Assembly: GCF_016026235.1 (NCBI RefSeq)
Contig: NZ_CP065613.1
Source: Escherichia coli
GTDB lineage: Bacteria; Pseudomonadota; Gammaproteobacteria; Enterobacterales; Enterobacteriaceae
Strand: one strand, 5' to 3'
DNA: 64,000 bases
Both the position numbers and the translations under genes were made by a program. Shown piece after piece: positions 3,575-46,400 of the stretch; the first letter of the stretch is position 1; every line of letters begins with the position of its first letter. The notes under the pieces were generated by a model, which was given only the letters and a program-made list of their open reading frames with translations, did no database searches and was not told the DNA's origin.

Positions 3575-4630
3575 GTGAAAAGTGCAATGACAAGCTCTCC
3601 GCTGCGGGTCGCGATAATAGGCGCAGGCCAAGTGGCGGATAAGGTTCATGCTTCGTACTACTGCACCCGCAACGATCTGGAACTGGTGGCTGTCTGTGAC
3701 AGCCGCCTTTCCCAGGCGCAGGCGCTGGCAGATAAATACGGTAATGCATCCGTGTGGGACGATCCGCAGGCCATGCTGCTGGCGGTGAAACCTGATGTGG
3801 TTAGCGTCTGCTCACCTAACCGTTTTCATTACGAACATACCCTGATGGCACTGGAAGCGGGCTGCCATGTGATGTGCGAAAAACCGCCCGCCATGACGCC
3901 AGAACAGGCGCGGGAAATGTGCGATACCGCGCGCAAACTGGGCAAGGTGCTGGCCTACGACTTTCACCATCGTTTTGCGCTCGATACGCAACAGCTGCGT
4001 GAACAGGTGACCAACGGCGTTTTGGGAGAGATTTACGTTACCACCGCCCGCGCCCTGCGTCGCTGCGGCGTTCCCGGCTGGGGCGTCTTTACCAATAAAG
4101 AACTGCAGGGTGGTGGCCCGCTGATCGACATCGGCATTCATATGCTGGATGCTGCGATGTATGTGCTGGGCTTTCCGGCGGTGAAAAGCGTGAATGCGCA
4201 TAGCTTTCAAAAGATCGGCACGCAAAAGAGCTGTGGTCAATTTGGCGAGTGGGATCCGGCAACTTATAGCGTCGAAGATTCGCTGTTTGGCACCATTGAA
4301 TTTCATAACGGCGGCATTCTGTGGCTGGAAACGTCATTTGCACTCAACATCCGCGAACAGTCGATTATGAACGTCAGCTTTTGTGGTGATAAAGCCGGTG
4401 CGACGCTGTTTCCAGCACATATCTACACCGATAACAACGGTGAATTAATGACGCTGATGCAACGGGAAATGGCAGACGACAACCGCCATTTGCGCAGCAT
4501 GGAAGCCTTTATCAATCACGTACAGGGCAAGCCCGTGATGATAGCCGACGCCGAGCAGGGGTACATCATCCAGCAACTGGTGGCGGCGTTGTATCAATCC
4601 GCAGAAACAGGGACGCGTGTGGAATTATGA
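3575..4630 (+). CDS. ycjS: Gfo/Idh/MocA-family NAD-dependent oxidoreductase
   Basis: 351-aa ORF, N-terminal Rossmann motif IIGAGQVA; synteny. Confidence 0.88.
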   Translation: MKSAMTSSPLRVAIIGAGQVADKVHASYYCTRNDLELVAVCDSRLSQAQALADKYGNASVWDDPQAMLLAVKPDVVSVCSPNRFHYEHTLMALEAGCHVMCEKPPAMTPEQAREMCDTARKLGKVLAYDFHHRFALDTQQLREQVTNGVLGEIYVTTARALRRCGVPGWGVFTNKELQGGGPLIDIGIHMLDAAMYVLGFPAVKSVNAHSFQKIGTQKSCGQFGEWDPATYSVEDSLFGTIEFHNGGILWLETSFALNIREQSIMNVSFCGDKAGATLFPAHIYTDNNGELMTLMQREMADDNRHLRSMEAFINHVQGKPVMIADAEQGYIIQQLVAALYQSAETGTRVEL

Positions 4631-6894
4631 CCAGGCCAGTAACGTTATCAGAACCCCATTTCAGCCAGCATACCCTGAACAAGTATGCATCGCTGATGGC
4701 GCAGGGGAACGGCTATCTTGGGCTTCGCGCCAGCCATGAAGAAGATTACACGCGCCAGACGCGAGGGATGTATCTGGCGGGGCTGTATCATCGGGCGGGA
4801 AAAGGTGAAATCAACGAACTGGTGAACCTGCCTGATATCTTGGGGATGGAGATTGCCATAAATGGTGAGGTTTTCTCGTTATCCCGCGAAGCCTGGCAGC
4901 GTGAACTTGACTTTGCCAGTGGAGAATTACGCCGTAGCGTTGTCTGGCGTACCAGCAACGGCACAGGTTACACCATCGCCAGCCGTCGCTTTGTTTCGGC
5001 AGACCAACTGCCGCTCATTGTGCTGGAAATCACTATTACGCCACTGGACGCCGACGCGTCAGTGCTGATTTCAACAGGTATCGACGCTACGCAAACCAAC
5101 CACGGTCGCCAACATCTCGACGAAACCCAGGTGCGGGTGTTTGGTCAGCATCTGATGCAGGGGATCTACACCACCCAGGATGGACGCAGTGATGTGGCCA
5201 TCAGCTGTTGCTGTATGGTGAGCGGTGATGTGCAGCAATGCTATACCGCCAAAGAGCGCCGTTTGCAGCAACATACCAGTGCGCAGCTTCATGCAGGCGA
5301 GACAGTGACGTTGCAAAAACTGGTGTGGATCGACTGGCGGGATGACAGGCAAGCCGTTTTAGACGAGTGGGGCAGCGCGTCGCTTCGCCAGCTTGAAATG
5401 TGCGCGCAGCAGAGTTACGACCAACTTCTTGCAGTATCAACAGAAAACTGGCGTCAATGGTGGCAGAAACGTCGTATCACGGTAAATGGCGGCGAAGCGC
5501 ACGATCAGCAAGCGTTAGATTATGCGCTTTATCATCTGCGCATCATGACGCCTGCCCACGACGAGCGCAGCAGCATTGCGGCAAAAGGCTTAACCGGCGA
5601 AGGCTACAAAGGCCACGTTTTCTGGGATACAGAAGTATTTTTGTTACCGTTTCATCTGTTTAGCGATCCGACGGTTGCCCGAAGTTTACTGCGTTATCGC
5701 TGGCACAACTTGCCAGGCGCGCAGGAGAAAGCGCGACGCAACGGCTGGCAGGGCGCGCTATTTCCGTGGGAAAGCGCGCGCAGCGGCGAAGAAGAGACGC
5801 CGGAATTTGCCGCCATTAACATTCGCACCGGGCTGCGGCAAAAAGTGGCCTCGGCGCAGGCGGAACATCATCTGGTGGCCGATATCGCCTGGGCGGTTAT
5901 TCAATACTGGCAGACCACGGGGGATGAAAGTTTCATTGCGCATGAAGGCATGGCGCTACTTCTGGAAACTGCAAAGTTCTGGATTAGCCGCGCGGTGAGG
6001 GTTAACGACCGTCTGGAAATTCATGATGTTATTGGGCCTGACGAATATACCGAACATGTCAATAATAACGCCTTCACCAGCTATATGGCGTATTACAACG
6101 TCCAGCAGGCGCTGAGTATTGCCCGCCAGTTTGGCTGTAGCGACGATGCGTTTATCCATCGCGCCGAAATGTTCCTTAAAGAACTGCGGCTGCCAGAAAT
6201 TCAGCCCGACGGCGTTTTGCCGCAGGATGATTCGTTTATGGCTAAGCCGGCGATTAATCTGGCGAAATACAAAGCGGCGGCGGGGAAGCAAACCATTCTG
6301 CTGGATTATTCACGCGCAGAAGTGAACGAGATGCAAATCCTCAAACAAGCTGATGTGGTGATGCTCAATTACATGCTGCCGGAGCAGTTCTCAGCGGCAT
6401 CGTGTCTTGCCAATCTGCAATTTTATGAACCGCGCACTATTCACGACTCGTCATTAAGTAAAGCAATCCACGGCATTGTTGCCGCACGCTGTGGCCTGCT
6501 GACCCAAAGTTATCAGTTCTGGCGCGAGGGGACTGAAATCGATCTTGGTGCTGATCCGCATAGTTGTGATGATGGTATCCATGCTGCCGCAACTGGCGCT
6601 ATCTGGCTGGGGGCGATTCAGGGTTTTGCCGGGGTGAGCGTGCGTGACGGTGAATTGCATCTCAATCCGGCGTTACCTGAGCAGTGGCAACAGTTGTCTT
6701 TCCCTCTGTTCTGGCAGGGCTGCGAATTACAGGTCACGCTCGACGCGCAGCGTATTGCGATTCGAACTTCTGCGCCCGTTTCACTGCGTTTGAACGGGCA
6801 GCTTATATCCGTGGCTGAAGAATCTGTTTTCTGTTTGGGTGATTTTATTTTGCCCTTCAATGGGACCGCTACCACACATCAGGAGGATGAATGA
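4627..6894 (+). CDS. ycjT: kojibiose phosphorylase (glycoside hydrolase family 65)
   Basis: 755-aa ORF; GH65 size and sequence; overlapping start/stop with neighbours. Confidence 0.9.
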
Positions 6895-7550
6895 AACTGC
6901 AAGGGGTAATTTTCGATCTGGATGGTGTAATCACCGATACCGCGCATCTGCATTTCCAGGCGTGGCAGCAGATTGCCGCTGAAATTGGCATCAGCATTGA
7001 TGCGCAGTTTAACGAATCCCTAAAAGGGATCAGCCGCGATGAGTCTCTGCGGCGCATTCTGCAACACGGGGGCAAAGAGGGCGACTTTAACTCGCAGGAG
7101 AGGGCGCAACTGGCGTATCGCAAAAATCTGCTCTATGTCCACTCACTGCGCGAGTTGACGGTCAACGCTGTTCTACCCGGCATTCGCTCTTTGCTGGCAG
7201 ATCTCCGTGCACAGCAGATCCCGGTTGGGCTGGCTTCTGTCTCCCTGAATGCGCCGACGATTTTAGCGGCGCTGGAGCTGCGCGAGTTTTTCACCTTCTG
7301 CGCGGATGCTTCCCAACTTAAAAACTCGAAACCGGACCCGGAAATCTTTCTCGCCGCCTGTGCAGGGCTGGGCGTGCCGCCGCAGGCATGTATCGGCATT
7401 GAAGATGCGCAGGCGGGCATTGACGCCATTAACGCCAGCGGTATGCGCTCGGTGGGGATCGGCGCGGGCATAACCGGGGCGCAATTACTATTGCCTTCAA
7501 CGGACTCCCTGACCTGGTCGCGGTTATCGGCCTTCTGGCAAAACGTATAG
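6891..7550 (+). CDS. ycjU: beta-phosphoglucomutase (HAD superfamily)
   Basis: 219-aa ORF with HAD motif [10 protein letters not shown] near N-terminus. Confidence 0.9.
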
Positions 7551-7563
7551 CAAAGGAATCAAC

Positions 7564-8646
7564 ATGGCTCAGCTTTCGTTACAACATATTCAAAAAATCT
7601 ACGATAACCAGGTGCATGTGGTGAAGGACTTCAACCTGGAAATTGCCGATAAAGAGTTCATCGTGTTTGTCGGTCCGTCAGGCTGCGGTAAGTCGACCAC
7701 CCTGCGCATGATTGCTGGGCTTGAGGAGATCAGCGGCGGCGATCTGTTGATCGACGGCAAACGAATGAATGACGTTCCAGCCAAAGCACGCAATATAGCG
7801 ATGGTGTTCCAGAACTACGCGTTGTATCCGCATATGACGGTTTACGACAACATGGCGTTTGGCCTGAAGATGCAAAAAATCGCCAAAGAGGTGATTGATG
7901 AGCGGGTGAACTGGGCGGCGCAAATTCTCGGCCTGCGTGAGTACCTGAAACGCAAGCCGGGCGCGCTTTCCGGCGGGCAACGCCAGCGTGTGGCGCTCGG
8001 GCGGGCGATTGTGCGCGAAGCGGGCGTGTTTTTAATGGATGAACCACTCTCTAACCTTGATGCCAAGCTGCGCGTGCAAATGCGCGCAGAGATCAGCAAG
8101 CTGCACCAGAAGCTGAATACCACCATGATCTACGTGACCCACGATCAGACCGAAGCGATGACCATGGCGACGCGGATTGTGATTATGAAGGATGGGATTG
8201 TTCAGCAAGTTGGTGCGCCGAAAACGGTTTATAACCAACCAGCGAATATGTTTGTTGCCGGATTTATTGGATCACCGGCGATGAATTTTATTCGTGGCAC
8301 GATCGATGGCGATAAATTCGTTACGGAAACGCTTAAATTAACCATTCCCGAAGAGAAATTAGCGGTTCTGAAAACACAGGGAAGTTTGCATAAGCCCATC
8401 GTGATGGGAATACGTCCGGAAGATATTCATCCGGACGCGCAAGAGGAAAATAACATTTCCGCCAAAATTAGCGTGGCAGAATTAACCGGTGCGGAATTTA
8501 TGCTCTACACCACGGTTGGGGGGCACGAGTTAGTGGTCCGTGCTGGTGCGTTAAATGATTATCATGCAGGAGAAAATATCACTATTCATTTTGATATGAC
8601 GAAATGTCATTTCTTTGATGCAGAAACGGAAATAGCAATTCGCTAA
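7564..8646 (+). CDS. ycjV: ABC transporter ATP-binding protein (MalK-like), intact
   Basis: 360-aa uninterrupted ORF with Walker A GPSGCGKST, signature LSGGQRQR, Walker B FLMDEP. Confidence 0.9.
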   Translation: MAQLSLQHIQKIYDNQVHVVKDFNLEIADKEFIVFVGPSGCGKSTTLRMIAGLEEISGGDLLIDGKRMNDVPAKARNIAMVFQNYALYPHMTVYDNMAFGLKMQKIAKEVIDERVNWAAQILGLREYLKRKPGALSGGQRQRVALGRAIVREAGVFLMDEPLSNLDAKLRVQMRAEISKLHQKLNTTMIYVTHDQTEAMTMATRIVIMKDGIVQQVGAPKTVYNQPANMFVAGFIGSPAMNFIRGTIDGDKFVTETLKLTIPEEKLAVLKTQGSLHKPIVMGIRPEDIHPDAQEENNISAKISVAELTGAEFMLYTTVGGHELVVRAGALNDYHAGENITIHFDMTKCHFFDAETEIAIR

Positions 8647-8690
8647 ATACAGGGGGAAGGCATTCCCCCAGAATAATACAAGGAACAATA

Positions 8691-9596
8691 ATGAAAAAGT
8701 TATTACCCTGTACCGCACTGGTGATGTGTGCGGGAATGGCCTGCGCACAGGCCGAGGAAAAGAACGACTGGCACTTTAATATCGGCGCGATGTACGAAAT
8801 AGAAAACGTCGAGGGTTATGGCGAAGATATGGATGGGCTGGCGGAGCCTTCAGTCTATTTTAATGCCGCCAACGGGCCGTGGAGAATTGCTCTGGCCTAT
8901 TATCAGGAAGGGCCGGTAGATTATAGCGCGGGTAAACGTGGAACGTGGTTTGATCGCCCGGAGCTGGAGGTGCATTATCAGTTCCTCGAAAACGATGATT
9001 TCAGTTTCGGCCTGACCGGCGGTTTCCGTAATTATGGTTATCACTACGTTGATGAACCGGGTAAAGACACGGCGAATATGCAGCGCTGGAAAATCGCGCC
9101 AGACTGGGATGTGAAACTGACTGACGATTTACGTTTCAACGGTTGGTTGTCGATGTATAAATTTGCCAACCATCTGAACACTACCGGTTACGCTGATACC
9201 CGTGTCGAAACGGAAACAGGTCTGCAATATACCTTCAACGAAACGGTTGCCTTGCGAGTGAACTATTATCTCGAGCGCGGCTTCAATATGGACGACAGCC
9301 GCAATAACGGTGAGTTTTCCACGCAAGAAATTCGCGCCTATTTGCCGCTGACGCTCGGCAACCACTCGGTGACGCCGTATACGCGCATTGGGCTGGATCG
9401 CTGGAGTAACTGGGACTGGCAGGATGATATTGAACGTGAAGGCCATGATTTTAACCGTGTAGGTTTATTTTACGGTTATGATTTCCAGAACGGACTTTCC
9501 GTTTCGCTGGAATACGCGTTTGAGTGGCAGGATCACGACGAAGGCGACAGTGATAAATTCCATTATGCAGGTGTCGGCGTAAATTACTCGTTCTGA
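8691..9596 (+). CDS. ompG: outer membrane porin OmpG
   Basis: 301-aa ORF with signal peptide and aromatic-rich beta-barrel sequence ending in F. Confidence 0.9.
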   Translation: MKKLLPCTALVMCAGMACAQAEEKNDWHFNIGAMYEIENVEGYGEDMDGLAEPSVYFNAANGPWRIALAYYQEGPVDYSAGKRGTWFDRPELEVHYQFLENDDFSFGLTGGFRNYGYHYVDEPGKDTANMQRWKIAPDWDVKLTDDLRFNGWLSMYKFANHLNTTGYADTRVETETGLQYTFNETVALRVNYYLERGFNMDDSRNNGEFSTQEIRAYLPLTLGNHSVTPYTRIGLDRWSNWDWQDDIEREGHDFNRVGLFYGYDFQNGLSVSLEYAFEWQDHDEGDSDKFHYAGVGVNYSF

Positions 9597-23203: not shown

Positions 23204-24496
23204 CTGAGGAATCCCCAGAAAACAAGACAGGCATAGTGAGATGTGATCTAATTGATTGTGCTAACAATTTCAAGGAGATCACCACTATGCCTGCACGTTC
23301 ATTATGCCAAAATTTCCTTAACAATATACTGGCCCCTTTGCATCTTTACCGTCAAAAATCACTGATTGACGCAACTAATGCTGTAATAAATGGCGCTTCC
23401 CTCACACTTACCAGTATCGGGCGTCATTTAACCGGTACGGCATCAGTTAAAAACAAAATAAAGCGGGTGGATCGACTGTTGGGGAATCGACATTTGCAAA
23501 ATGAGGTTTCCACCATTTTTCAGCGAATTACCCAAAAGATTACGCGGGGAATGTCTCGTGTTGTGATACTCATTGACTGGAGTGCTTATCATGCCTCTCG
23601 TTTTCAGCTTTTGCGGGCAAGCCTGGCATGTGACGGGCGTTCTTTACCGTTGATGAGTTGTGTCGTTCCATCATCACAGACAGCGAATGCAGATGTACAT
23701 GAGCGTTTTCTGGAATCGCTTGCTGAGTGCTTTTCCCCGGGACTGATGTCATTGTTATTACAGATGCCGGTTTTCAGGGGCGATGGTTCCAACAGCTCCG
23801 CTCCCGTGGCTGGACCTATATTTGCCGGGTACTGGGCAATCATTATTACAATGTTGGTAATGGCTGGGAAAAGGTGTCGGACTCAGGCACAAAAGCATCA
23901 ACGACAGCAATTTATTTAGGTGAAGGCCTGCTGGGTCGAGATAAAAATGCACAACATGAAGGGCATTTTTATCTTTATAAAAGTAAGCCTAAAGGTCGTA
24001 GATTTAAACGCTCGAAGGAAAGAGCAACCAGACCATCGGTGACGGCTAAAGCTCGTACTGCCGGGAAATCACCATGGTTTATTTTCACAAACAGTACTGA
24101 GTTCTCGCCAAAACAGGTAATGAAATTATACAGCCGTAGAATGCAAATTGAGCAAAATTTCAGGGATGAAAAAAATCCTCGCTGGGGATTTGGACTACGG
24201 TTTGGTGCCAGTCATTCATCCGGGCGGGTCACGGTATTGAGTCTGATCGCAACATTAGCCAGTATCATTATGTGGTTAAGCGGTTTCAGCCTGGAAAACA
24301 AAGGGATACATCATAAATATCAGGCAAATACAGTGAAGCACAGGCGAGTCATCTCGTTATTAAAACTGGCGGAGAATGTGATTCGACATTCTCCACTCAT
24401 ACTAAACACACTGTCACTTGACGCAGGGCTGAAAGTTCTACAGCAACGGTATACCAATATGATAATGGTTTACTAAATTTTCTGGGGATCCCTCAG
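23204..24496 (+). mobile_element. IS4-family (IS10-like) insertion sequence, copy 1
   Basis: Terminal inverted repeats CTGAGGAATCCCCAGAAAA / TTTTCTGGGGATCCCTCAG; 10-bp direct repeat AGATTGTCCC on both flanks. Confidence 0.85.
23287..24476 (+). pseudogene. IS10-like transposase, frameshifted in copy 1
   Basis: One C missing from the C5 run near 23747 relative to copies 2 and 3; ORF splits into 23197-23919 and 23727-24476. Confidence 0.8.
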
Positions 24497-28615: not shown

Positions 28616-29368
28616 TCAGGCAACGTTACGCGTATGACCAGCAAGCTGGGCCAGCGCATCGTTATTTTCGATGGTGATGTATTTACCTTTGACTGCCAGC
28701 ATACCGCTTTTCTGGAAGCGACCTAGCAGACGGCTGATGGTTTCTACCGTCAGGCCCAGATAGTTACCGATATCGCCACGAGTCATCGTCAGGCGGAATT
28801 CACGAGGGGAGAAGCCGCGTTGGGCAAAACGACGGGACAGGTTGTAGATGAATGCAGCCAGACGTTCCTCGGCATTTTTCTTCGACAACAGCAAGATCAT
28901 GTCCTGATCGCCTTTGATTTCACCGCTCATCAGACGCATCATCTGCTGACGCAGATTCGGCATTTTACCGGACAAATCGTCCAGCGTTTCGAACGGGATT
29001 TCACATACCATCGAGGTTTCCAGCGCCTGAGCGAAGCTCGGGTGATGGCCGCTGCCGATGGCGTCAAATCCCACCAGGTCGCCAGCTAAATGGAAACCAG
29101 TGATTTGCTCGTCGCCTTGCTCAGTGATGGTATAACTTTTAATCGTACCGGAGCGGATGGCATAAAGCGATTTAAGTTCATCACCAGCCTTAAACAGCGT
29201 CTGGCCTTTCTGAATAGGCTTCTTCCGCTCAATGATATTATCAAGCTGATCAAGCTCATGTTCGTTGAGTGTGAACGGGATGCAAAGCTGGCTGATGCTG
29301 CAATCCTGGCAATGGATAGCACAACCGCCAGACTGAATGCGCCGTATAATTCGCTTTTCCGGGATCAT
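28616..29368 (-). CDS. fnr: fumarate/nitrate reduction regulator FNR
   Basis: Start at [23 protein letters not shown]; N-terminal Cys cluster and CRP-family HTH. Confidence 0.95.
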
Positions 29369-29562
29369 AGGTCTGCTCAAGCCGTAATTGATATTTGTCA
29401 ATTTTAACATCTTTTTAGGGAGCAAGTAAGTCTAAGCAAACCTTAACAGCAGAGAATTCCGATATTAGATGTAAATATATGTCTATCTATTTGAAAACCC
29501 TTAAGTTGTTAAGGGTAACTTTACATAAAAGTGTGAACAAGCTGGCACAAATTGTTTAATGT

Positions 29563-30078
29563 TTACAGCAAAAGATAACCTTCGTGGCGCAATAACCACT
29601 CTTTTCGCTGAACTCCGCCTGCATATCCGGTCATGGTGCCGTTTCGGCCAATAACCCGATGGCAAGGTACGACGATGCTGATGGGATTCGATCCGTTTGC
29701 CGCACCAACGGCACGCGCCGCGCCAGGGCGGCCCAATTGTTCAGCCAGTTGGCCGTAATGCATTACCTGCCCGCAGGGGATAGTGCGTAGAGTTTTCCAG
29801 ACTTCGCGCTGAAATGGCGTCCCCCCTGTGGCAGTGGGAAGCGTATCAATAATGCTAAGATTACCGGCAAAATAATCACGAAGCTTGTCGCTTAAACCGC
29901 CTGGGTTGGTGGCAGAAATGCGCTCATAGCCTTCTTTGCGATAATGGATGTCCAGCAGCTGCACCATGCGTTCGCTGTACTCTTCCCATTCAACCGCCCG
30001 CAGGCGAAATTGCTCATCGCAAATCACCCACAGTGGACCCAGTGGCGTGGCAATTTTTTCTTCAAGTAATCTCAGCAT
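29563..30078 (-). CDS. ogt: O6-methylguanine-DNA methyltransferase
   Basis: 171-aa ORF with active-site motif VPCHRVIG. Confidence 0.95.
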
Positions 30079-30112
30079 CCGTTCTCTCTTAAGACAAACG
30101 TGGGTAAATCCC

Positions 30113-31406
30113 CTGAGGAATCCCCAGAAAACAAGACAGGCATAGTGAGATGTGATCTAATTGATTGTGCTAACAATTTCAAGGAGATCACCACTATGCC
30201 TGCACGTTCATTATGCCAAAATTTCCTTAACAACATACTGGCCCCTTTGCATCTTTACCGTCAAAAATCACTGATTGACGCAACTAATGCTGTAATAAAT
30301 GGCGCTTCCCTCACACTTACCAGTATCGGGCGTCATTTAACCGGTACGGCATCAGTTAAAAACAAAATAAAGCGGGTGGATCGACTGTTGGGGAATCGAC
30401 ATTTGCAAAATGAGGTTTCCACCATTTTTCAGCGAATTACCCAAAAGATTACGCGGGGAATGTCTCGTGTTGTGATACTCATTGACTGGAGTGCTTATCA
30501 TGCCTCTCGTTTTCAGCTTTTGCGGGCAAGCCTGGCATGTGACGGGCGTTCTTTACCGTTGATGAGTTGTGTCGTTCCATCATCACAGACAGCGAATGCA
30601 GATGTACATGAGCGTTTTCTGGAATCGCTTGCTGAGTGCTTTTCCCCCGGGACTGATGTCATTGTTATTACAGATGCCGGTTTTCAGGGGCGATGGTTCC
30701 AACAGCTCCGCTCCCGTGGCTGGACCTATATTTGCCGGGTACTGGGCAATCATTATTACAATGTTGGTAATGGCTGGGAAAAGGTGTCGGACTCAGGCAC
30801 AAAAGCATCAACGACAGCAATTTATTTAGGTGAAGGCCTGCTGGGTCGAGATAAAAATGCACAACATGAAGGGCATTTTTATCTTTATAAAAGTAAGCCT
30901 AAAGGTCGTAGATTTAAACGCTCGAAGGAAAGAGCAACCAGACCATCGGTGACGGCTAAAGCTCGTACTGCCGGGAAATCACCATGGTTTATTTTCACAA
31001 ACAGTACTGAGTTCTCGCCAAAACAGGTAATGAAATTATACAGCCGTAGAATGCAAATTGAGCAAAATTTCAGGGATGAAAAAAATCCTCGCTGGGGATT
31101 TGGACTACGGTTTGGTGCCAGTCATTCATCCGGGCGGGTCACGGTATTGAGTCTGATCGCAACATTAGCCAGTATCATTATGTGGTTAAGCGGTTTCAGC
31201 CTGGAAAACAAAGGGATACATCATAAATATCAGGCAAATACAGTGAAGCACAGGCGAGTCATCTCGTTATTAAAACTGGCGGAGAATGTGATTCGACATT
31301 CTCCACTCATACTAAACACACTGTCACTTGACGCAGGGCTGAAAGTTCTACAGCAACGGTATACCAATATGATAATGGTTTACTAAATTTTCTGGGGATC
31401 CCTCAG
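30113..31406 (+). mobile_element. IS4-family (IS10-like) insertion sequence, copy 2
   Basis: Same terminal inverted repeats; 10-bp direct repeat GGTAAATCCC on both flanks; 1294 bp. Confidence 0.85.
30196..31386 (+). CDS. IS10-like transposase (IS4 family), intact
   Basis: 396 aa from MPARSL; NKIKRVDRLLGNRHL and IEQNFRDEKNPRWGFGLR regions resemble the IS10 transposase. Confidence 0.85.
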   Translation: MPARSLCQNFLNNILAPLHLYRQKSLIDATNAVINGASLTLTSIGRHLTGTASVKNKIKRVDRLLGNRHLQNEVSTIFQRITQKITRGMSRVVILIDWSAYHASRFQLLRASLACDGRSLPLMSCVVPSSQTANADVHERFLESLAECFSPGTDVIVITDAGFQGRWFQQLRSRGWTYICRVLGNHYYNVGNGWEKVSDSGTKASTTAIYLGEGLLGRDKNAQHEGHFYLYKSKPKGRRFKRSKERATRPSVTAKARTAGKSPWFIFTNSTEFSPKQVMKLYSRRMQIEQNFRDEKNPRWGFGLRFGASHSSGRVTVLSLIATLASIIMWLSGFSLENKGIHHKYQANTVKHRRVISLLKLAENVIRHSPLILNTLSLDAGLKVLQQRYTNMIMVY

Positions 31407-31545
31407 GGTAAATCCCCGGACCTATCGGCAGACCAACAAGATACCACGCCAGCAACATCAGCAGCCATACCACCAAAAAGATAAGCGGATAGGGCAAGAC
31501 TAACGAATAGTAAGTACCCAGTTTCGCGTCTGGTTTGTCGCAGTC
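31407..31545 (-). pseudogene. abgT: 3' remnant of aminobenzoyl-glutamate transporter gene abgT
   Basis: Hydrophobic C-terminal tail KPDAKLGTYYSLVLPYPLIFLVVWLLMLLAWYLVGLPIGPGIY; the flank before the IS completes it as GIYPRLS-stop next to ogt. Confidence 0.5.
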
Positions 31546-31923
31546 TGATAGCATAAAGCGATTTTTTGATTTTTCTGCCTGAAGAAATGAGGGCAAGCCA
31601 TCACATGGATCGAGGGTGGGATAATTCCAGTCAGTGAAATTTTACCGTAGGCTATCTGTTATTTGATTCTGTGGCGTGATAGCCGCCAGACACCACTGAA
31701 CTCGTCACTCATTCCCCAATCCCGGCGAGAATGTGGTTATTTACAGAGCTAAAAATGAATAAAAAATAGAGCCTGTCGACATCCGCCAGACTCTACAGTA
31801 CACACAGCAGTGCATCCTCGTCTTAAATCCGGCCTGGGGTCCTTGTGACCGGTGACAGTGTTATAACGGTTTTACCCATCCGTTGCCAATTTTCTTCAGT
31901 GACAGATTTCACGAAAATATAAG

Positions 31924-32724
31924 TTAAATCATTTGTCTTGTGATTGCATAATCATGCATCGTTAATCGACGAGTAAATTTACCGGGCGAGTAGCCCGTTC
32001 GACGCTTAAACATATTGCCGAACGATTCAGCTGAGGCATAGCCCAGACGATGGGCAATTTTGGTCAACGAATATCCATCATCAAGAAGCGTCACTGCAGA
32101 AATAACGTGCATTTGCTGAACCCAGTGGCGAAATGTTAATCCCGTCTCTTTAACAAATAAGCGCATGAGTGTACGGCTACTGACGTTAATTTTATCCGCT
32201 AGATTATCCAGTGTTGGCAGATACCCTTGGTTGTTTAGCAAATTCTCACAAAGCTGCTGTAGCCGCTCATCATTTGGCCAAGGGAGTTCAAGTGACATTT
32301 TCACCCCCATTTTTATTTCCTGAAGTATCAGTGTCTCGAGGGCTGAAAAACGTAACTGTTGTTTATCTGTGGTACTTTGCGACGGTGGAAGTTGGTTAAT
32401 TGCAATTAGTAATTCCCTTAACAGGGGTGAAATACCCGTCATGAAGCAAACTGTTCCCAGCGTTTCACTTTCCGCTTCTGAAACCAGTACGGTTTTTAAA
32501 AGTACGTTGCCTGTCGCAACAAACTTATGCGGCATTTGTGGGGGCAGCCAAAGCGCGCTGCTGGCATGGACTCCAGCCCATACACGAACGACTCCTTCAG
32601 CCGGGTAAAGCAACTGGGCATAGAGATGTTTATGCCAGGGAACTGTACCTCCATTCAGATGTTCCGAATCCAGTCCGATAATGTGATGCCCTGGTGATGC
32701 TTTGGGTTGCAGTATAATTGTCAT
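31924..32724 (-). CDS. AraC-family transcriptional regulator
   Basis: 266-aa ORF; C-terminal AraC HTH region LTKIAHRLGYASAESFGNMFKRRTGYSPGKF. Confidence 0.8.
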   Translation of the reverse strand: MTIILQPKASPGHHIIGLDSEHLNGGTVPWHKHLYAQLLYPAEGVVRVWAGVHASSALWLPPQMPHKFVATGNVLLKTVLVSEAESETLGTVCFMTGISPLLRELLIAINQLPPSQSTTDKQQLRFSALETLILQEIKMGVKMSLELPWPNDERLQQLCENLLNNQGYLPTLDNLADKINVSSRTLMRLFVKETGLTFRHWVQQMHVISAVTLLDDGYSLTKIAHRLGYASAESFGNMFKRRTGYSPGKFTRRLTMHDYAITRQMI

Positions 32725-32817
32725 TTACAGTAGGTATTTTGTCAGAAATCATCAAATAAGCCATGTTAAATTTTAAATATGACGTATGCAAGTTTCCGGA
32801 TATATACGGTGTAAAGA

Positions 32818-33849
32818 GTGATGATAATTTCTAAAAAACAGCTTATTGGGGTGGTAGCGATCGGTATTCTTTTGACTGGCGTTGTCTTTTTTATCTGGTG
32901 GGTAAGCAAAGGAAGATTTATACAGACGACGGATGATGCTTACATTGGTGGTAATATCACCACGGTGGCAAGTAAAGTTTCTGGTTATATTTCTGCTATA
33001 GAGGTGCGCGATAATCAGAGCGTAAAAAAAGGCGATATTATCCTGCGTCTCGATGATCGGGATTATCGTGCAAATGTCGCCAGGCTTGAGGCAAAAATAA
33101 AAAGTAGCAAAGCCAATCTCGAAGGCATTCAAGCCACTATTGCGATGCAGCAGTCGATAATTCAAAGTGCCAGTGAAACATGGCAGGCAGTAAAACATGA
33201 GGAGCAAAAGCGCCTGCGAGATACTGAACGTTATGAAAAACTCGCACAATCAGCGGCAATATCGCAACAAATTATTGATAACGCCAGGTTTGACTACCAG
33301 CAGGTCGCAGCAAAGGAGCGCAAAGCCGCGAACGATTTCCTGGTGGAGAAGCAACGGCTGGCAGTTTTATCTGCTCAGGAAGAAAACGTACGTGCGAGTA
33401 TCGAAGAAGTTCAGGCCGCTTTGACTCAGGCACTACTGGATCTGGAATATACCCTTGTGCGTGCGCCGATTGATGGCATTGTCGCAAACCGCAGCGCCCA
33501 TACAGGCAGTTGGGTGGAAGGCGGCACATCGTTAGTTTCACTAGTACCAGTCAGTGAGTTGTGGGTTGATGCAAATTATAAAGAAAACCAAATAGCGGGA
33601 ATGAAGCCAGGAATGAAGGCTGAGATCCGTGCTGATATTCTCAAAGGGGAAGTGTTTCACGGTCACATTGAAAGCCTTTCCCCAGCGACAGGAGCCAGTT
33701 TCAGCTTGATTCCGATAGAAAATGCCACTGGCAATTTCACCAAAATTGTTCAGCGTGTCCCGGTACGGATTGCATTTGACGACGCAAAGGAATTAAAGCA
33801 ACTTCTTCGCCCGGGACTGTCCGTCACCGTCAGTGTTGATGAGAGATGA
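32818..33849 (+). CDS. HlyD/EmrA-family membrane fusion protein
   Basis: 343-aa ORF with N-terminal TM segment, coiled-coil middle and beta-barrel C-terminus. Confidence 0.8.
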   Translation: MMIISKKQLIGVVAIGILLTGVVFFIWWVSKGRFIQTTDDAYIGGNITTVASKVSGYISAIEVRDNQSVKKGDIILRLDDRDYRANVARLEAKIKSSKANLEGIQATIAMQQSIIQSASETWQAVKHEEQKRLRDTERYEKLAQSAAISQQIIDNARFDYQQVAAKERKAANDFLVEKQRLAVLSAQEENVRASIEEVQAALTQALLDLEYTLVRAPIDGIVANRSAHTGSWVEGGTSLVSLVPVSELWVDANYKENQIAGMKPGMKAEIRADILKGEVFHGHIESLSPATGASFSLIPIENATGNFTKIVQRVPVRIAFDDAKELKQLLRPGLSVTVSVDER

Positions 33850-35359
33850 TGTCTATGCGTAAACATATTGCTTTCGCCAGTATGTGTATGGGATTATTTA
33901 TTGCTCAGCTTGATATTCAAATTGTATCGTCATCCCTAAATGAAATAGGTGGTGGTTTGTCCGCAGGTAAAGACGAAATGGCCTGGCTTCAGACCAGCTA
34001 TTTAATTGCTGAGATTATTGTTATTCCGCTCTCTGGGTGGCTGTCACGGGTATTTTCCACTCGTTGGCTTTTTACTCTATCCGCGGGAATATTTACTTTA
34101 ATGAGTATCGCGTGTGGACTTGCATGGAATATTCAGATCATGATTTTGTTTCGTGCTTTACAGGGAGCTGCTGGCGCATCCATGATCCCTTTAGTTTTCA
34201 CGACGGCGTTTATTTATTACCAGGGTAAAGAGTTGGGGTTGGCTGCTGCGGTAGTCAGTGCGCTGGCCTCACTGTCACCGACGCTAGGGCCAACTCTGGG
34301 GGGCTGGATCACTGATAACCTCGACTGGCGATGGCTATTTTATATCAATATATTACCTGGCATATATTTAGTTTTGAGTATTCCTTTTCTGGTTAATTTT
34401 GATAAACCTGATCTCTCTTTACTGAAAGTTGCTGATTATCCGAGTATTATCCTGTTGGCCATGACTCTGGGATGTCTGGAATATACCCTTGAAGAAGGAG
34501 CGCGCTGGGGATGGCTGGATGATAATACTATTTTGCTGACATCAGTTCTGGCATTGGTGAGTTTTATTTTATTTGCTGCGCGTACACTTACAATATCCAA
34601 TCCGATAATGGATCTTCATGCTTTTAAGGATAAAAATTTCACTCTGGGATGTTTTTTTTCTTTTTCTGGAGGGGTTGGGATATTCTCTACTGTATATTTA
34701 ATACCTGTGTTTTTGGGGCAGATTCGCGGATTAAATGCCGAAGAGATAGGTTTTGCCGTTTGCACAACAGGTATTTTCCAGTTATTTTCTGTTCCCTTTT
34801 ACTTCTGGTTAAGTAAAAAAATAAATCTGCGATGGCTGTTGATGGCGGGGCTGGGCGGATTTGTGTTTTCAATGTATCTTTTTACCCCTATAACCCACGA
34901 ATGGGGATGGCAGGAATTACTGTTTCCACAGGCAATTAGAGGGATTTCGCAGCAGTTTGCGATGGCCCCATCGTAACATTAACGCTAGGGGGAATTCCAA
35001 AAGAACGGCTGAAGTTAGCCTCTGGTGTATTTAATTTAACACGTAATCTTGGGGGCGCGATTGGTATTGCCCTGTGTGGCTCTATTCTCAATAATCGAAC
35101 TAATTTTCATTTTTCGCGAATGGGTGAAAAAATGGTTTCTGTTCCCCATACGGTGAATGACTTCATTTCCAGAAGTGCTTTATTTTTTAATCGCAGTGGA
35201 AGTGACCAGACATCGGAAATACTGGCTTCAACCAAATTATTGAGTCAATTGATGCTGAGGGAGGCGCAAACTATGGCATTTTCGGATACCTTTCTGCTAA
35301 TCAGTGGTCTGTTATTTATCGCATTTTTGTTGGTTCCTGCTATGAATAAATCATCCTGA
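33846..35359 (+). pseudogene. MFS efflux transporter (EmrB-like) with apparent frameshift
   Basis: ORF 33846-34976 stops early; the protein continues in another frame through 35359. Confidence 0.65.
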
Positions 35360-35553
35360 TCGGAGCCTGTGCTGAATTAAACTCGGGCTAAACTGTTCGA
35401 TACTGCTAACAGGCTAGTATAAAATGCCCCGCCTGCGCAGATACTCACAGGTATGAAGTAGAGTATTGTTTCAATCTGTGAAGGGAACGATGCAGTAAGT
35501 ATGAACAATTAACCCGTCTGAATCACGACGTGTGAAGGTGCATAGGAGGTTAC

Positions 35554-36117
35554 ATGAACCTTGACGACAAATCGCTGTTTCTTGACGCCATGGAAGATGT
35601 CCAGCCGCTGAAACGAGCTACAGATGTCCACTGGCATCCAACGCGTAACCAACGTGCGCCGCAGCGTATCGACACGCTGCAGCTTGATAATTTCCTCACC
35701 ACCGGATTTCTCGACATCATCCCGCTAAGTCAGCCGCTGGAGTTTCGGCGGGAAGGGTTGCAACATGGGGTGCTGGATAAGCTGCGCAGTGGTAAATATC
35801 CGCAACAGGCGAGCCTGAATCTTTTGCGCCAGCCGGTGGAAGAGTGCCGCAAAATGGTGTTCAGTTTCATTCAACAAGCCCTGGCGGATGGTTTGCGTAA
35901 TGTGCTGATTATTCATGGTAAAGGGCGGGAAGATAAATCGCATGCCAATATTGTCCGCAGCTATGTGGCGCGCTGGCTGACCGAATTTGATGATGTTCAG
36001 GCATATTGCACCGCGCTACCGCATCATGGCGGCAGCGGGGCGTGTTACGTCGCACTACGTAAAACGGCGCAGGCGAAGCAAGAAAACTGGGAGCGCCACG
36101 CTAAGCGCAGTCGTTGA
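35554..36117 (+). CDS. smrA: Smr-domain DNA endonuclease
   Basis: 187-aa ORF with Smr motif LIIHGKG; synteny. Confidence 0.85.
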   Translation: MNLDDKSLFLDAMEDVQPLKRATDVHWHPTRNQRAPQRIDTLQLDNFLTTGFLDIIPLSQPLEFRREGLQHGVLDKLRSGKYPQQASLNLLRQPVEECRKMVFSFIQQALADGLRNVLIIHGKGREDKSHANIVRSYVARWLTEFDDVQAYCTALPHHGGSGACYVALRKTAQAKQENWERHAKRSR

Positions 36118-38703: not shown

Positions 38704-38826
38704 GCAGGTGAATGCAACGTCAAGCGATGGGCGTTGCGCTCCATATTGTCTTACTTCCTTTTTTGAATTACTGCATAGCACAATTGATTCGTACGACGCC
38801 GACTTTGATGAGTCGGCTTTTTTTTG
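38704..38826 (+). ncRNA. fnrS: FNR-regulated small RNA FnrS
   Basis: GCAGGTGAATGCAACGTCAAGCGATGGGCG... ending in GCCGACTTTGATGAGTCGGC hairpin plus T-run; zntB-dbpA intergenic position. Confidence 0.8.
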
Positions 38827-45106: not shown

Positions 45107-46400
45107 CTGAGGGATCCCCAGAAAATTTAGTAAACCATTATCATATTGGTATACCGTTGCTGTAGAACTTTCAGCCCTGCGTCAAGTGACAGTGTGTTTA
45201 GTATGAGTGGAGAATGTCGAATCACATTCTCCGCCAGTTTTAATAACGAGATGACTCGCCTGTGCTTCACTGTATTTGCCTGATATTTATGATGTATCCC
45301 TTTGTTTTCCAGGCTGAAACCGCTTAACCACATAATGATACTGGCTAATGTTGCGATCAGACTCAATACCGTGACCCGCCCGGATGAATGACTGGCACCA
45401 AACCGTAGTCCAAATCCCCAGCGAGGATTTTTTTCATCCCTGAAATTTTGCTCAATTTGCATTCTACGGCTGTATAATTTCATTACCTGTTTTGGCGAGA
45501 ACTCAGTACTGTTTGTGAAAATAAACCATGGTGATTTCCCGGCAGTACGAGCTTTAGCCGTCACCGATGGTCTGGTTGCTCTTTCCTTCGAGCGTTTAAA
45601 TCTACGACCTTTAGGCTTACTTTTATAAAGATAAAAATGCCCTTCATGTTGTGCATTTTTATCTCGACCCAGCAGGCCTTCACCTAAATAAATTGCTGTC
45701 GTTGATGCTTTTGTGCCTGAGTCCGACACCTTTTCCCAGCCATTACCAACATTGTAATAATGATTGCCCAGTACCCGGCAAATATAGGTCCAGCCACGGG
45801 AGCGGAGCTGTTGGAACCATCGCCCCTGAAAACCGGCATCTGTAATAACAATGACATCAGTCCCGGGGGAAAAGCACTCAGCAAGCGATTCCAGAAAACG
45901 CTCATGTACATCTGCATTCGCTGTCTGTGATGATGGAACGACACAACTCATCAACGGTAAAGAACGCCCGTCACATGCCAGGCTTGCCCGCAAAAGCTGA
46001 AAACGAGAGGCATGATAAGCACTCCAGTCAATGAGTATCACAACACGAGACATTCCCCGCGTAATCTTTTGGGTAATTCGCTGAAAAATGGTGGAAACCT
46101 CATTTTGCAAATGTCGATTCCCCAACAGTCGATCCACCCGCTTTATTTTGTTTTTAACTGATGCCGTACCGGTTAAATGACGCCCGATACTGGTAAGTGT
46201 GAGGGAAGCGCCATTTATTACAGCATTAGTTGCGTCAATCAGTGATTTTTGACGGTAAAGATGCAAAGGGGCCAGTATGTTGTTAAGGAAATTTTGGCAT
46301 AATGAACGTGCAGGCATAGTGGTGATCTCCTTGAAATTGTTAGCACAATCAATTAGATCACATCTCACTATGCCTGTCTTGTTTTCTGGGGATTCCTCAG
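45107..46400 (-). mobile_element. IS4-family (IS10-like) insertion sequence, copy 3
   Basis: Same inverted repeats; 10-bp direct repeat GGGTGTTCCC on both flanks; 1294 bp. Confidence 0.85.
45127..46317 (-). CDS. IS10-like transposase (IS4 family), intact
   Basis: Translation identical to the copy 2 transposase. Confidence 0.85.
   Translation of the reverse strand: MPARSLCQNFLNNILAPLHLYRQKSLIDATNAVINGASLTLTSIGRHLTGTASVKNKIKRVDRLLGNRHLQNEVSTIFQRITQKITRGMSRVVILIDWSAYHASRFQLLRASLACDGRSLPLMSCVVPSSQTANADVHERFLESLAECFSPGTDVIVITDAGFQGRWFQQLRSRGWTYICRVLGNHYYNVGNGWEKVSDSGTKASTTAIYLGEGLLGRDKNAQHEGHFYLYKSKPKGRRFKRSKERATRPSVTAKARTAGKSPWFIFTNSTEFSPKQVMKLYSRRMQIEQNFRDEKNPRWGFGLRFGASHSSGRVTVLSLIATLASIIMWLSGFSLENKGIHHKYQANTVKHRRVISLLKLAENVIRHSPLILNTLSLDAGLKVLQQRYTNMIMVY

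Follow-up and report, generated by a model that had tools for sequence, protein, structure and literature searches.

Two described systems stand closest to the locus analyzed here, which is the interval between ogt and smrA in a stretch of 64,000 nucleotides of Escherichia coli DNA (contig NZ_CP065613.1), referred to below as the window. The EmrAB-TolC system, encoded by emrRAB, consists of a 14-helix transporter of the DHA2 family of the major facilitator superfamily (MFS) and an adaptor that is encoded just upstream in the same operon, with no gene for an outer-membrane component at the locus. Its regulator EmrR is of the MarR type. In E. coli K-12, ogt is followed by abgT, abgB, abgA and abgR (abgTBAR), and the gene for the small RNA McaS is located between abgR and smrA (ydaL). 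The window has the same ogt, mcaS and smrA anchors in the same orientation and encodes a full-length McaS, but only fragments of abgT and abgR are left, and a cassette of ∼3.6 kb (31960-35543) encoding an AraC-family regulator, an HlyD-family periplasmic adaptor and an EmrB-like MFS transporter is located between mcaS and smrA. In contrast, the K-12 interval has intact abgTBAR genes, no cassette, 111 bp of ancestral DNA upstream of smrA and a different McaS 5′ loop. The initial annotation had interpreted the window as a replacement of the abg operon by the efflux locus. The comparisons described here are likely best explained by a history of five separate events and a cassette for an EmrAB-like pump. 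A search of the literature on abg, McaS and ydaL found nothing on an abg-deletion polymorphism or on the cassette.

Features of the window were read from the listing of its open reading frames (ORFs) and directly from the letters, and the frequencies of the different arrangements were counted among 5,426 complete E. coli genomes. In a megablast of positions 31387-35553 against them, 31541-31959 was assigned to the abgR 3′ end and the sequence following it. The K-12 type, abgTBAR-mcaS-smrA, was found in ∼3,900-4,050 genomes, with ∼3,910 having only a K-12-type match. About 700 genomes carry abgTBAR-mcaS-AraC/HlyD/MFS-smrA (∼708 match the junction from intact abgR to AraC at ≥95% identity), and the deletion junction of the window type, abgT'-'abgR-mcaS-AraC/HlyD/MFS-smrA, was identified in 698. 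The cassette is carried by ∼1,450 genomes (∼27%). In strain AST240 the gene order is ogt-abgT-abgB-abgA-abgR-AraC-HlyD-MFS-smrA, and N3 and CFSAN018748 are arranged likewise; the abgR gene of the cassette-bearing genomes with intact abg is normal (98% identical to K-12). Because AST240, N3 and CFSAN018748 have abg and the cassette together, the loss of abg and the gain of the cassette are two separate polymorphisms lying side by side.

Pairwise alignment with AST240 showed that the abg deletion removed 5,043 bp, from inside abgT to inside abgR. The window matches abgT of AST240 up to position 3957 of that locus and resumes in abgR at 9001; positions 3958-9000, which hold the whole of abgB and abgA, the larger part of abgT and three-quarters of abgR at its 5′ end, are gone. 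The junction of 2 nt was placed at 31539-31540, where a breakpoint near 31540 had been expected, and possibly contains a TGTA microhomology. What is left of abgT amounts to 146 nt and of abgR to ∼212 nt. The abgT 3′ remnant on the minus strand spans 31407-31538, its first 10 bp being the duplicated target site of an insertion sequence (IS), and the last seven codons and the stop (GIYPRLS and stop codon) lie beyond this element at 30089-30112, collinear with the abgT tail at 5988-6131 of locus L001. The tail of about 45 codons previously described at 31407-31545 was therewith recovered, at a length of ∼47 codons plus the stop. The part at 31407-31538 shares 97.7% identity with abgT of both AST240 and a K-12-like genome, and the corresponding remnant in L001 and L007 is labeled by the Prokaryotic Genome Annotation Pipeline (PGAP) as 'AbgT family transporter, missing N-terminus'.

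Between the abgT tail and the AraC-family gene there is a stretch of ∼400 bp without a long ORF, which had been taken for unrelated non-coding DNA. It actually contains the 3′ remnant of abgR, a pseudogene on the plus strand (31541-31752, right end approximate), and the complete mcaS gene on the minus strand (31758-31853). Both had escaped the initial annotation, as had the in-frame loss of 15 bp from the AraC gene. In relatives, PGAP labels the abgR stub as a LysR family transcriptional regulator that is frameshifted, has an internal stop and is missing its N-terminus. The stub is ∼80% identical to functional abgR, with indels (31541-31752 compared with 9001-9214 of L002), and is the only part of the deletion-type region that has diverged, the adjoining abgT tail and mcaS being nearly identical. 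It was considered whether the ∼82% abgR match of the DNA following abgT was a haplotype difference linked to the cassette, but this was rejected since abgR is normal in those cassette genomes whose abg genes are intact.

The same junction was found in sequence type 131 (ST131), the type strain ATCC 11775, one chicken isolate, one bovine isolate and CP089930 ("E. coli E69"), which is ∼92% identical over 12 kb and was used as a separate species representative; the abgR stub of E69 is of intermediate divergence. Since the junction is common to 698 genomes and E69 and the abgR stub is ∼20% diverged, the abg deletion is old. An abg loss older than the IS and independent of it, as had been proposed, is in line with this distribution. 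The loss of p-aminobenzoyl-glutamate salvage is an old polymorphism across major lineages of extraintestinal pathogenic E. coli, with the McaS gene left intact. In Citrobacter koseri, the ogt-smrA interval (L030, 8480-9000) contains a 79-bp remnant of the abgT tail and a McaS gene (59.4 bits) while the abg genes are absent, which suggests an independent abg loss outside Escherichia.

The cassette starts ∼420 bp beyond the deletion junction and has a G+C content of 42-47%, compared with 48.8% for the whole window. The AraC-family regulator gene on the minus strand (31924-32724) encodes 266 amino acids here and 271 in other E. coli. It is separated by a divergent intergenic region of 96 bp (32725-32820) from two genes on the plus strand, an intact HlyD-family gene for an EmrA-like adaptor of 342 amino acids (32821-33849) and the DHA2-family EmrB-like MFS gene (33846-35359), which is broken in the window and is followed by a 184-bp spacer forming the right end of the insertion (35360-35543). 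The last 4 nt of the adaptor gene (ATGA, 33846-33849) are also the first of the MFS gene, which suggests that both form one operon. The 96-bp intergenic region has the same sequence in E69 (100%) and, to judge from the gene layout, presumably contains the promoter and operator.

The intact 504-amino-acid allele of the MFS protein belongs to the DHA2 EmrB/QacA subfamily, matching TIGR00711 over residues 9-496 with 404.4 bits (cut-off 230.2). Its score against the EmrB model NF000391 was 217.8 bits, well below the cut-off of 925, and the transporter is thus a paralogue of EmrB and not EmrB itself. The adaptor exceeded the cut-off of TIGR01730 (RND_mfp; 131.5 bits vs 94.9), whereas residues 6-339 aligned to positions 2-334 of the 334 positions of TIGR00998 (EmrA/EmrK) with 266 bits, below the cut-off of 390.8. 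The closest solved structures were cryo-electron microscopy entries of EmrAB, namely EmrB for the MFS protein (8zal/8zar, E = 1e-55) and EmrA for the adaptor (8zar, E = 1e-42). In the intact AraC allele the domains HTH_18 (E = 1.3e-21), AraC_binding (5.7e-8) and Cupin_2 (1.1e-6) were identified. The AraC, HlyD and EmrB-like MFS identities proposed earlier from the sequence were therefore right in terms of profile, domain and structure matches, and the cassette can be described as a predicted AraC/cupin regulator with an EmrAB-like pump. It resembles EmrAB-TolC in the 14-helix DHA2 transporter, in the position of the adaptor gene and in the lack of an outer-membrane channel gene at the locus, none having been found for the cassette by ORF listing or in related annotation. 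It differs in that the scores remain below the EmrB and EmrA/EmrK cut-offs, the curated EmrA model (NF011715) has 390 positions compared with the 342 amino acids of the cassette adaptor, the regulator is a divergently encoded AraC/cupin protein and not a MarR-type protein such as EmrR, and the cassette is accessory. The cassette adds an uncharacterised member to a known family of pumps, and its locus is ordinary accessory-genome variation in an interval known to be variable.

Orthologous three-gene cassettes were identified in other Enterobacteriaceae, including Citrobacter, Kluyvera and Salmonella salamae. Those of Citrobacter freundii, Kluyvera cryocrescens and Salmonella enterica subsp. salamae have the same genes in the same order and orientation, including the overlap of the adaptor and MFS genes, and amino acid identity to the E. 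coli cassette is 82% for the MFS protein (505 amino acids in the orthologues) and 79% for AraC. They differ in their surroundings, occurring in at least three unrelated genomic contexts, some beside resolvase or copper-resistance genes, and in the AraC protein, which has 262 amino acids and ends 11 residues before E. coli AraC. The synonymous divergence (dS) between the Citrobacter-type and E. coli cassettes is saturated. Because of this saturation and because the cassette of E69 occupies the same position, its acquisition cannot have been recent.

In the window, the abgT stub is interrupted 35 bp upstream of the ogt start codon by an IS of 1,294 bp on the plus strand (30113-31406), which contains a transposase ORF of 396-428 amino acids. 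It ends with CTGAGG...CCTCAG and is flanked by a 10-bp target duplication, GGTAAATCCC, at 30103-30112 and 31407-31416. Its sequence is 99.8% identical to that of elements carrying the annotation 'IS4-like element ISEc60 family transposase', and the transposase matched NCBIfam NF033591 with 360.5 bits (cut-off 152); with a DDE transposase, terminal inverted repeats and target duplications, it is an ISEc60-like member of the IS4 family. OkiPb01713 has the same abg deletion and an uninterrupted target site, and an IS at the 30113 site was present in none of the 5,426 complete E. coli genomes. The reading as a simple insertion with intact duplication, already made in the initial annotation, could be upheld, and the insertion is later than the abg loss and independent of it. 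Three ISEc60-like copies are found within the 64 kb, at 23204-24496 (plus), 30113-31406 (plus) and 45107-46400 (minus), of which two are identical and the third differs at two positions. The 10-bp duplications are individual to each copy and all end in CCC (GGTAAATCCC, AGATTGTCCC and GGGAACACCC), which points to a recent expansion of this element with a target preference. The IS separates ogt from any promoter in the abgT 3′ end, and ogt expression may be altered.

Three-way alignment of the window with its relatives revealed three differences that are private to the window, in McaS (1 bp of the terminator U-tract), AraC (15 bp) and the MFS gene (1 bp). The AraC deletion is located after 32570 and removes ESVWL from the cupin domain. 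Owing to this loss of five residues the scores of the sensor domain are lower (AraC_binding reduced from 33.0 to 15.4 bits, E = 0.016; Cupin_2 18.5 bits, E = 0.0017), and the helix-turn-helix domain is unchanged. The deletion is shared by no cassette-bearing complete genome, and the exact 266-amino-acid protein was found on 21 contigs. In the MFS gene, a run of five C residues is reduced to four at 34966-34969, which leads to a stop at 34974-34976 and a product of 376 amino acids, with the other frame continuing to 35359. The stop lies in the region aligned with transmembrane helix (TM) 12, so that the window's own copy does not have the full set of 14 helices: part of TM12 and all of TM13-14 are lost and the last 128 residues are out of frame. 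The pump is therefore most likely non-functional in this strain. The MFS gene of E69 (L013, 7980-9502) is split into ORFs of 287 and 236 amino acids by a different, independent disruption.

An exchange of the abg operon for the AraC/HlyD/MFS locus in a single event is what the window suggests at first sight, as it seems to keep the abgT tail only and has the efflux genes within ∼400 bp of it; moreover, every inspected genome with the deletion junction also has the cassette. Such an exchange is nevertheless hardly conceivable. It is refuted by the ∼700 complete genomes, AST240, N3 and CFSAN018748 among them, in which the full abgTBAR is followed by mcaS and the same cassette, and the abgR remnant and intact mcaS between the junction (31539) and the cassette boundary (31960) set the breakpoints ∼420 bp apart and assign them to different events. 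Since the cassette coexists with intact abgTBAR, it is not a replacement of abg, and the abg loss is a separate internal deletion. Which of the two states upstream of smrA came first can be judged from the borders of the cassette and from the outgroups C. rodentium, C. koseri and Salmonella. The 111 bp upstream of smrA in the K-12 type align with C. rodentium (114 bp, 76%), C. koseri and Salmonella, while the 184-bp spacer at 35360-35543 has no homology to K-12-type DNA or to these outgroups. A cassette is present in the ogt-smrA interval of none of the three outgroup genomes: smrA directly adjoins ogt in C. rodentium and Salmonella, and in C. koseri the abgT remnant and McaS lie between them. 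At the other border, the extra 36 nt of E. coli AraC (31924-31959) are located exactly where the K-12-type homology stops. As AraC orthologues do not have the 11-codon tail and the tail is homologous to K-12 DNA, E. coli AraC appears to read into the backbone, its last 11 codons (31927-31959) being backbone and not cassette DNA. Because the smrA upstream DNA is common to the K-12 type and the outgroups and the AraC tail is absent from the orthologues, the cassette is best regarded as a derived insertion that replaced ∼111 bp of ancestral DNA upstream of smrA; the AraC/HlyD/MFS locus being the ancestral arrangement, the possibility by which the earlier proposal might have been overturned, is not borne out. 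It is accordingly unlikely that the cassette is ancestral in Escherichia and that the K-12 type arose by its deletion. The K-12-type DNA does retain 36 nt homologous to the last 12 codons of the AraC gene (28/36 positions), the cassette of E69 occupies the same position despite ∼8% divergence, and the saturated dS requires that any acquisition is not recent. However, the terminal extension of AraC is found in no orthologue outside Escherichia, as expected from read-through into an existing backbone, and Citrobacter and Salmonella share the K-12-type upstream region and not the cassette-type spacer. For the same reasons the 36 nt were rejected as a vestige of cassette loss.

Two further alternatives concern the state of the MFS gene, within and outside the lineage of the window. 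In RefSeq, the DHA2 MFS gene is labeled by PGAP as 'frameshifted', with a coding sequence of 1,456 nt, in all six genomes inspected (L001, L002, L004, L005, L006 and L007), which would imply that the cassettes of all E. coli are pseudogene loci. This is very unlikely. The equivalents of 33846-35359 are located at 8457-9971 in L001 and 11324-12838 in L002 and start at 5921 in L004, 3921 in L006 and 7364 in L007; in five of the six genomes the ORF is uninterrupted over 504 codons and aligns with the 505-amino-acid orthologues end to end and without gaps. A hidden, compensated frameshift behind the flag was considered and rejected, as none was found in the E. coli MFS alignments. The end of the PGAP feature coincides with an out-of-frame TAA, at which truncated Shigella flexneri proteins with the C-terminus AFSVPFC also terminate (484 and 488 amino acids, WP_162471458.1 included); 484 codons and a stop make 1,455 nt, and a single extra base brings this to 1,456 nt. 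It is thus probable that the flag is an artefact of a frameshifted reference protein. Ratios of nonsynonymous to synonymous substitution (dN/dS) within E. coli were 0.04-0.25 for the MFS gene and 0.12-0.23 for AraC; for the adaptor, two comparisons gave ∼0.15, and the closest pair, with a dS of only 0.009, gave 0.59. Since the MFS ORF is intact in five of six genomes and its dN/dS is 0.04-0.25, the cassette appears to be maintained in other E. coli. It is put forward tentatively, with the balance leaning somewhat against it, that ∼27% of E. coli, ST131 and the type strain among them, possess in this cassette a functional efflux system that is maintained by selection and has been overlooked because of the pseudogene flag. 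If this was true, the cassette pump would be missed by resistome and pan-genome screens in which pseudogenes are discarded. Within the lineage of the window, a homopolymer error of sequencing or assembly could have produced the frameshift and left the pump intact. A single-base change in a C5 run is a classic site for such errors, one related assembly (L027) has C5, and an exact match across the run was found in none of the 1,451 cassette-bearing complete genomes, all of which except strain N3 have one extra base. An error is even so slightly less probable than the pseudogene reading just described. All six independent assemblies of the lineage have the AraC deletion and the IS end, and five of them have C4, among which are two GenBank drafts and Logan assemblies made from the short reads of different runs; because of these two distributions the frameshift that had been reported near 34970 is best regarded as a genuine mutation and as the most recent of the events. 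The same lineage has also lost 15 bp from the regulator gene, which fits a locus that was already decaying.

The McaS gene between the two polymorphisms was covered by the covariance model RF00115 over positions 1-96 with 108.8 bits (gathering score 42) and is therefore a full-length family member, compared with 118.4 bits for K-12 McaS. Alignment and folding showed that McaS on cassette-bearing chromosomes has the 5′ hairpin loop UCACAAGGACCCCAG, compared with GCAGAGGAGACAAU in K-12, with the CCGG stem and the GGA motif conserved between both hairpins. The terminator U-tract in the window is 1 base shorter than in the closest relatives owing to the private deletion at 31760. The arrival of the cassette swapped the upstream region of smrA and came with a distinct McaS allele, and could change the regulation of both neighbors.

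The preferred history of separate events can be outlined as follows. An ancestral ogt-abgT-abgB-abgA-abgR-mcaS-smrA chromosome would have taken up the 3.6-kb cassette at a site flanked by the mcaS promoter region and smrA, the insertion replacing ∼111 bp of smrA upstream DNA and extending the AraC frame by 11 codons into the backbone. A cassette-bearing chromosome would then have lost the 5,043 bp from abgT to abgR and with them the uptake and hydrolysis of p-aminobenzoyl-glutamate, leaving two pseudogene stubs and an intact mcaS. In the lineage of the window, the ISEc60-like element would subsequently have entered the abgT stub, 15 bp would have been lost from the AraC sensor domain and, as the last step, one C would have been lost from the C5 run, truncating the MFS protein. 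In the intact cassette, the regulator may sense a small molecule via its cupin domain and control the adaptor-transporter operon from the 96-bp region, and by analogy with EmrAB the adaptor and the 14-helix MFS protein may form a proton-driven pump that borrows TolC. The use of TolC is proposed because no outer-membrane gene is present at the locus. The main value of this history lies in correcting the record, as a stack of ordinary events (an insertion, a deletion, an IS hop and two small lesions) takes the place of a gene-for-gene replacement. The strain of the window represents an IS-expanding lineage in which an accessory pump decays stepwise, with a clean ordering of events.

Several observations weigh against parts of this history. 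The cassette-plus and cassette-minus haplotypes are ∼17% different over the 5′ part of mcaS and its promoter, which seems to fit recombinational import from a divergent lineage better than a simple insertion in place. At the borders of the cassette only short repeats at chance level were found when terminal repeats, an integrase and mobility genes were looked for, and the 184-bp spacer has no matching source. The polarity was judged from C. rodentium, C. koseri and Salmonella, all of them outgroups from outside Escherichia. The ∼20% divergence of the abgR stub exceeds simple decay since the E. coli radiation and is only partly explained. Finally, the adaptor, with its score below the EmrA/EmrK cut-off, appears to be only a distant relative of these proteins, and the proposed substrate, inducer and TolC use of the cassette are guesses from EmrAB.

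The interval is bordered on the left by the intact ogt gene on the minus strand (29563-30078), an ORF of 171 amino acids whose DNA is 100% identical to the gene annotated as ogt in OkiPb01713, preceded by fnr on the minus strand (28616-29425), and on the right by the intact smrA gene on the plus strand (35554-36117). In FDAARGOS_943 a different IS4-family element, with a transposase gene of 1,422 nt, is found within the ogt-AraC interval (L004, 2293-3714), and this genome contains ∼39 ISEc60-like copies. The ogt-AraC interval is a repeated target of IS insertions, and the Escherichia chromosome is variable between ogt and smrA. Further downstream, the gene for the small RNA FnrS was identified at 38704-38821 on the plus strand (RF01796, 134.8 bits), which is present and conserved in every outgroup locus examined.

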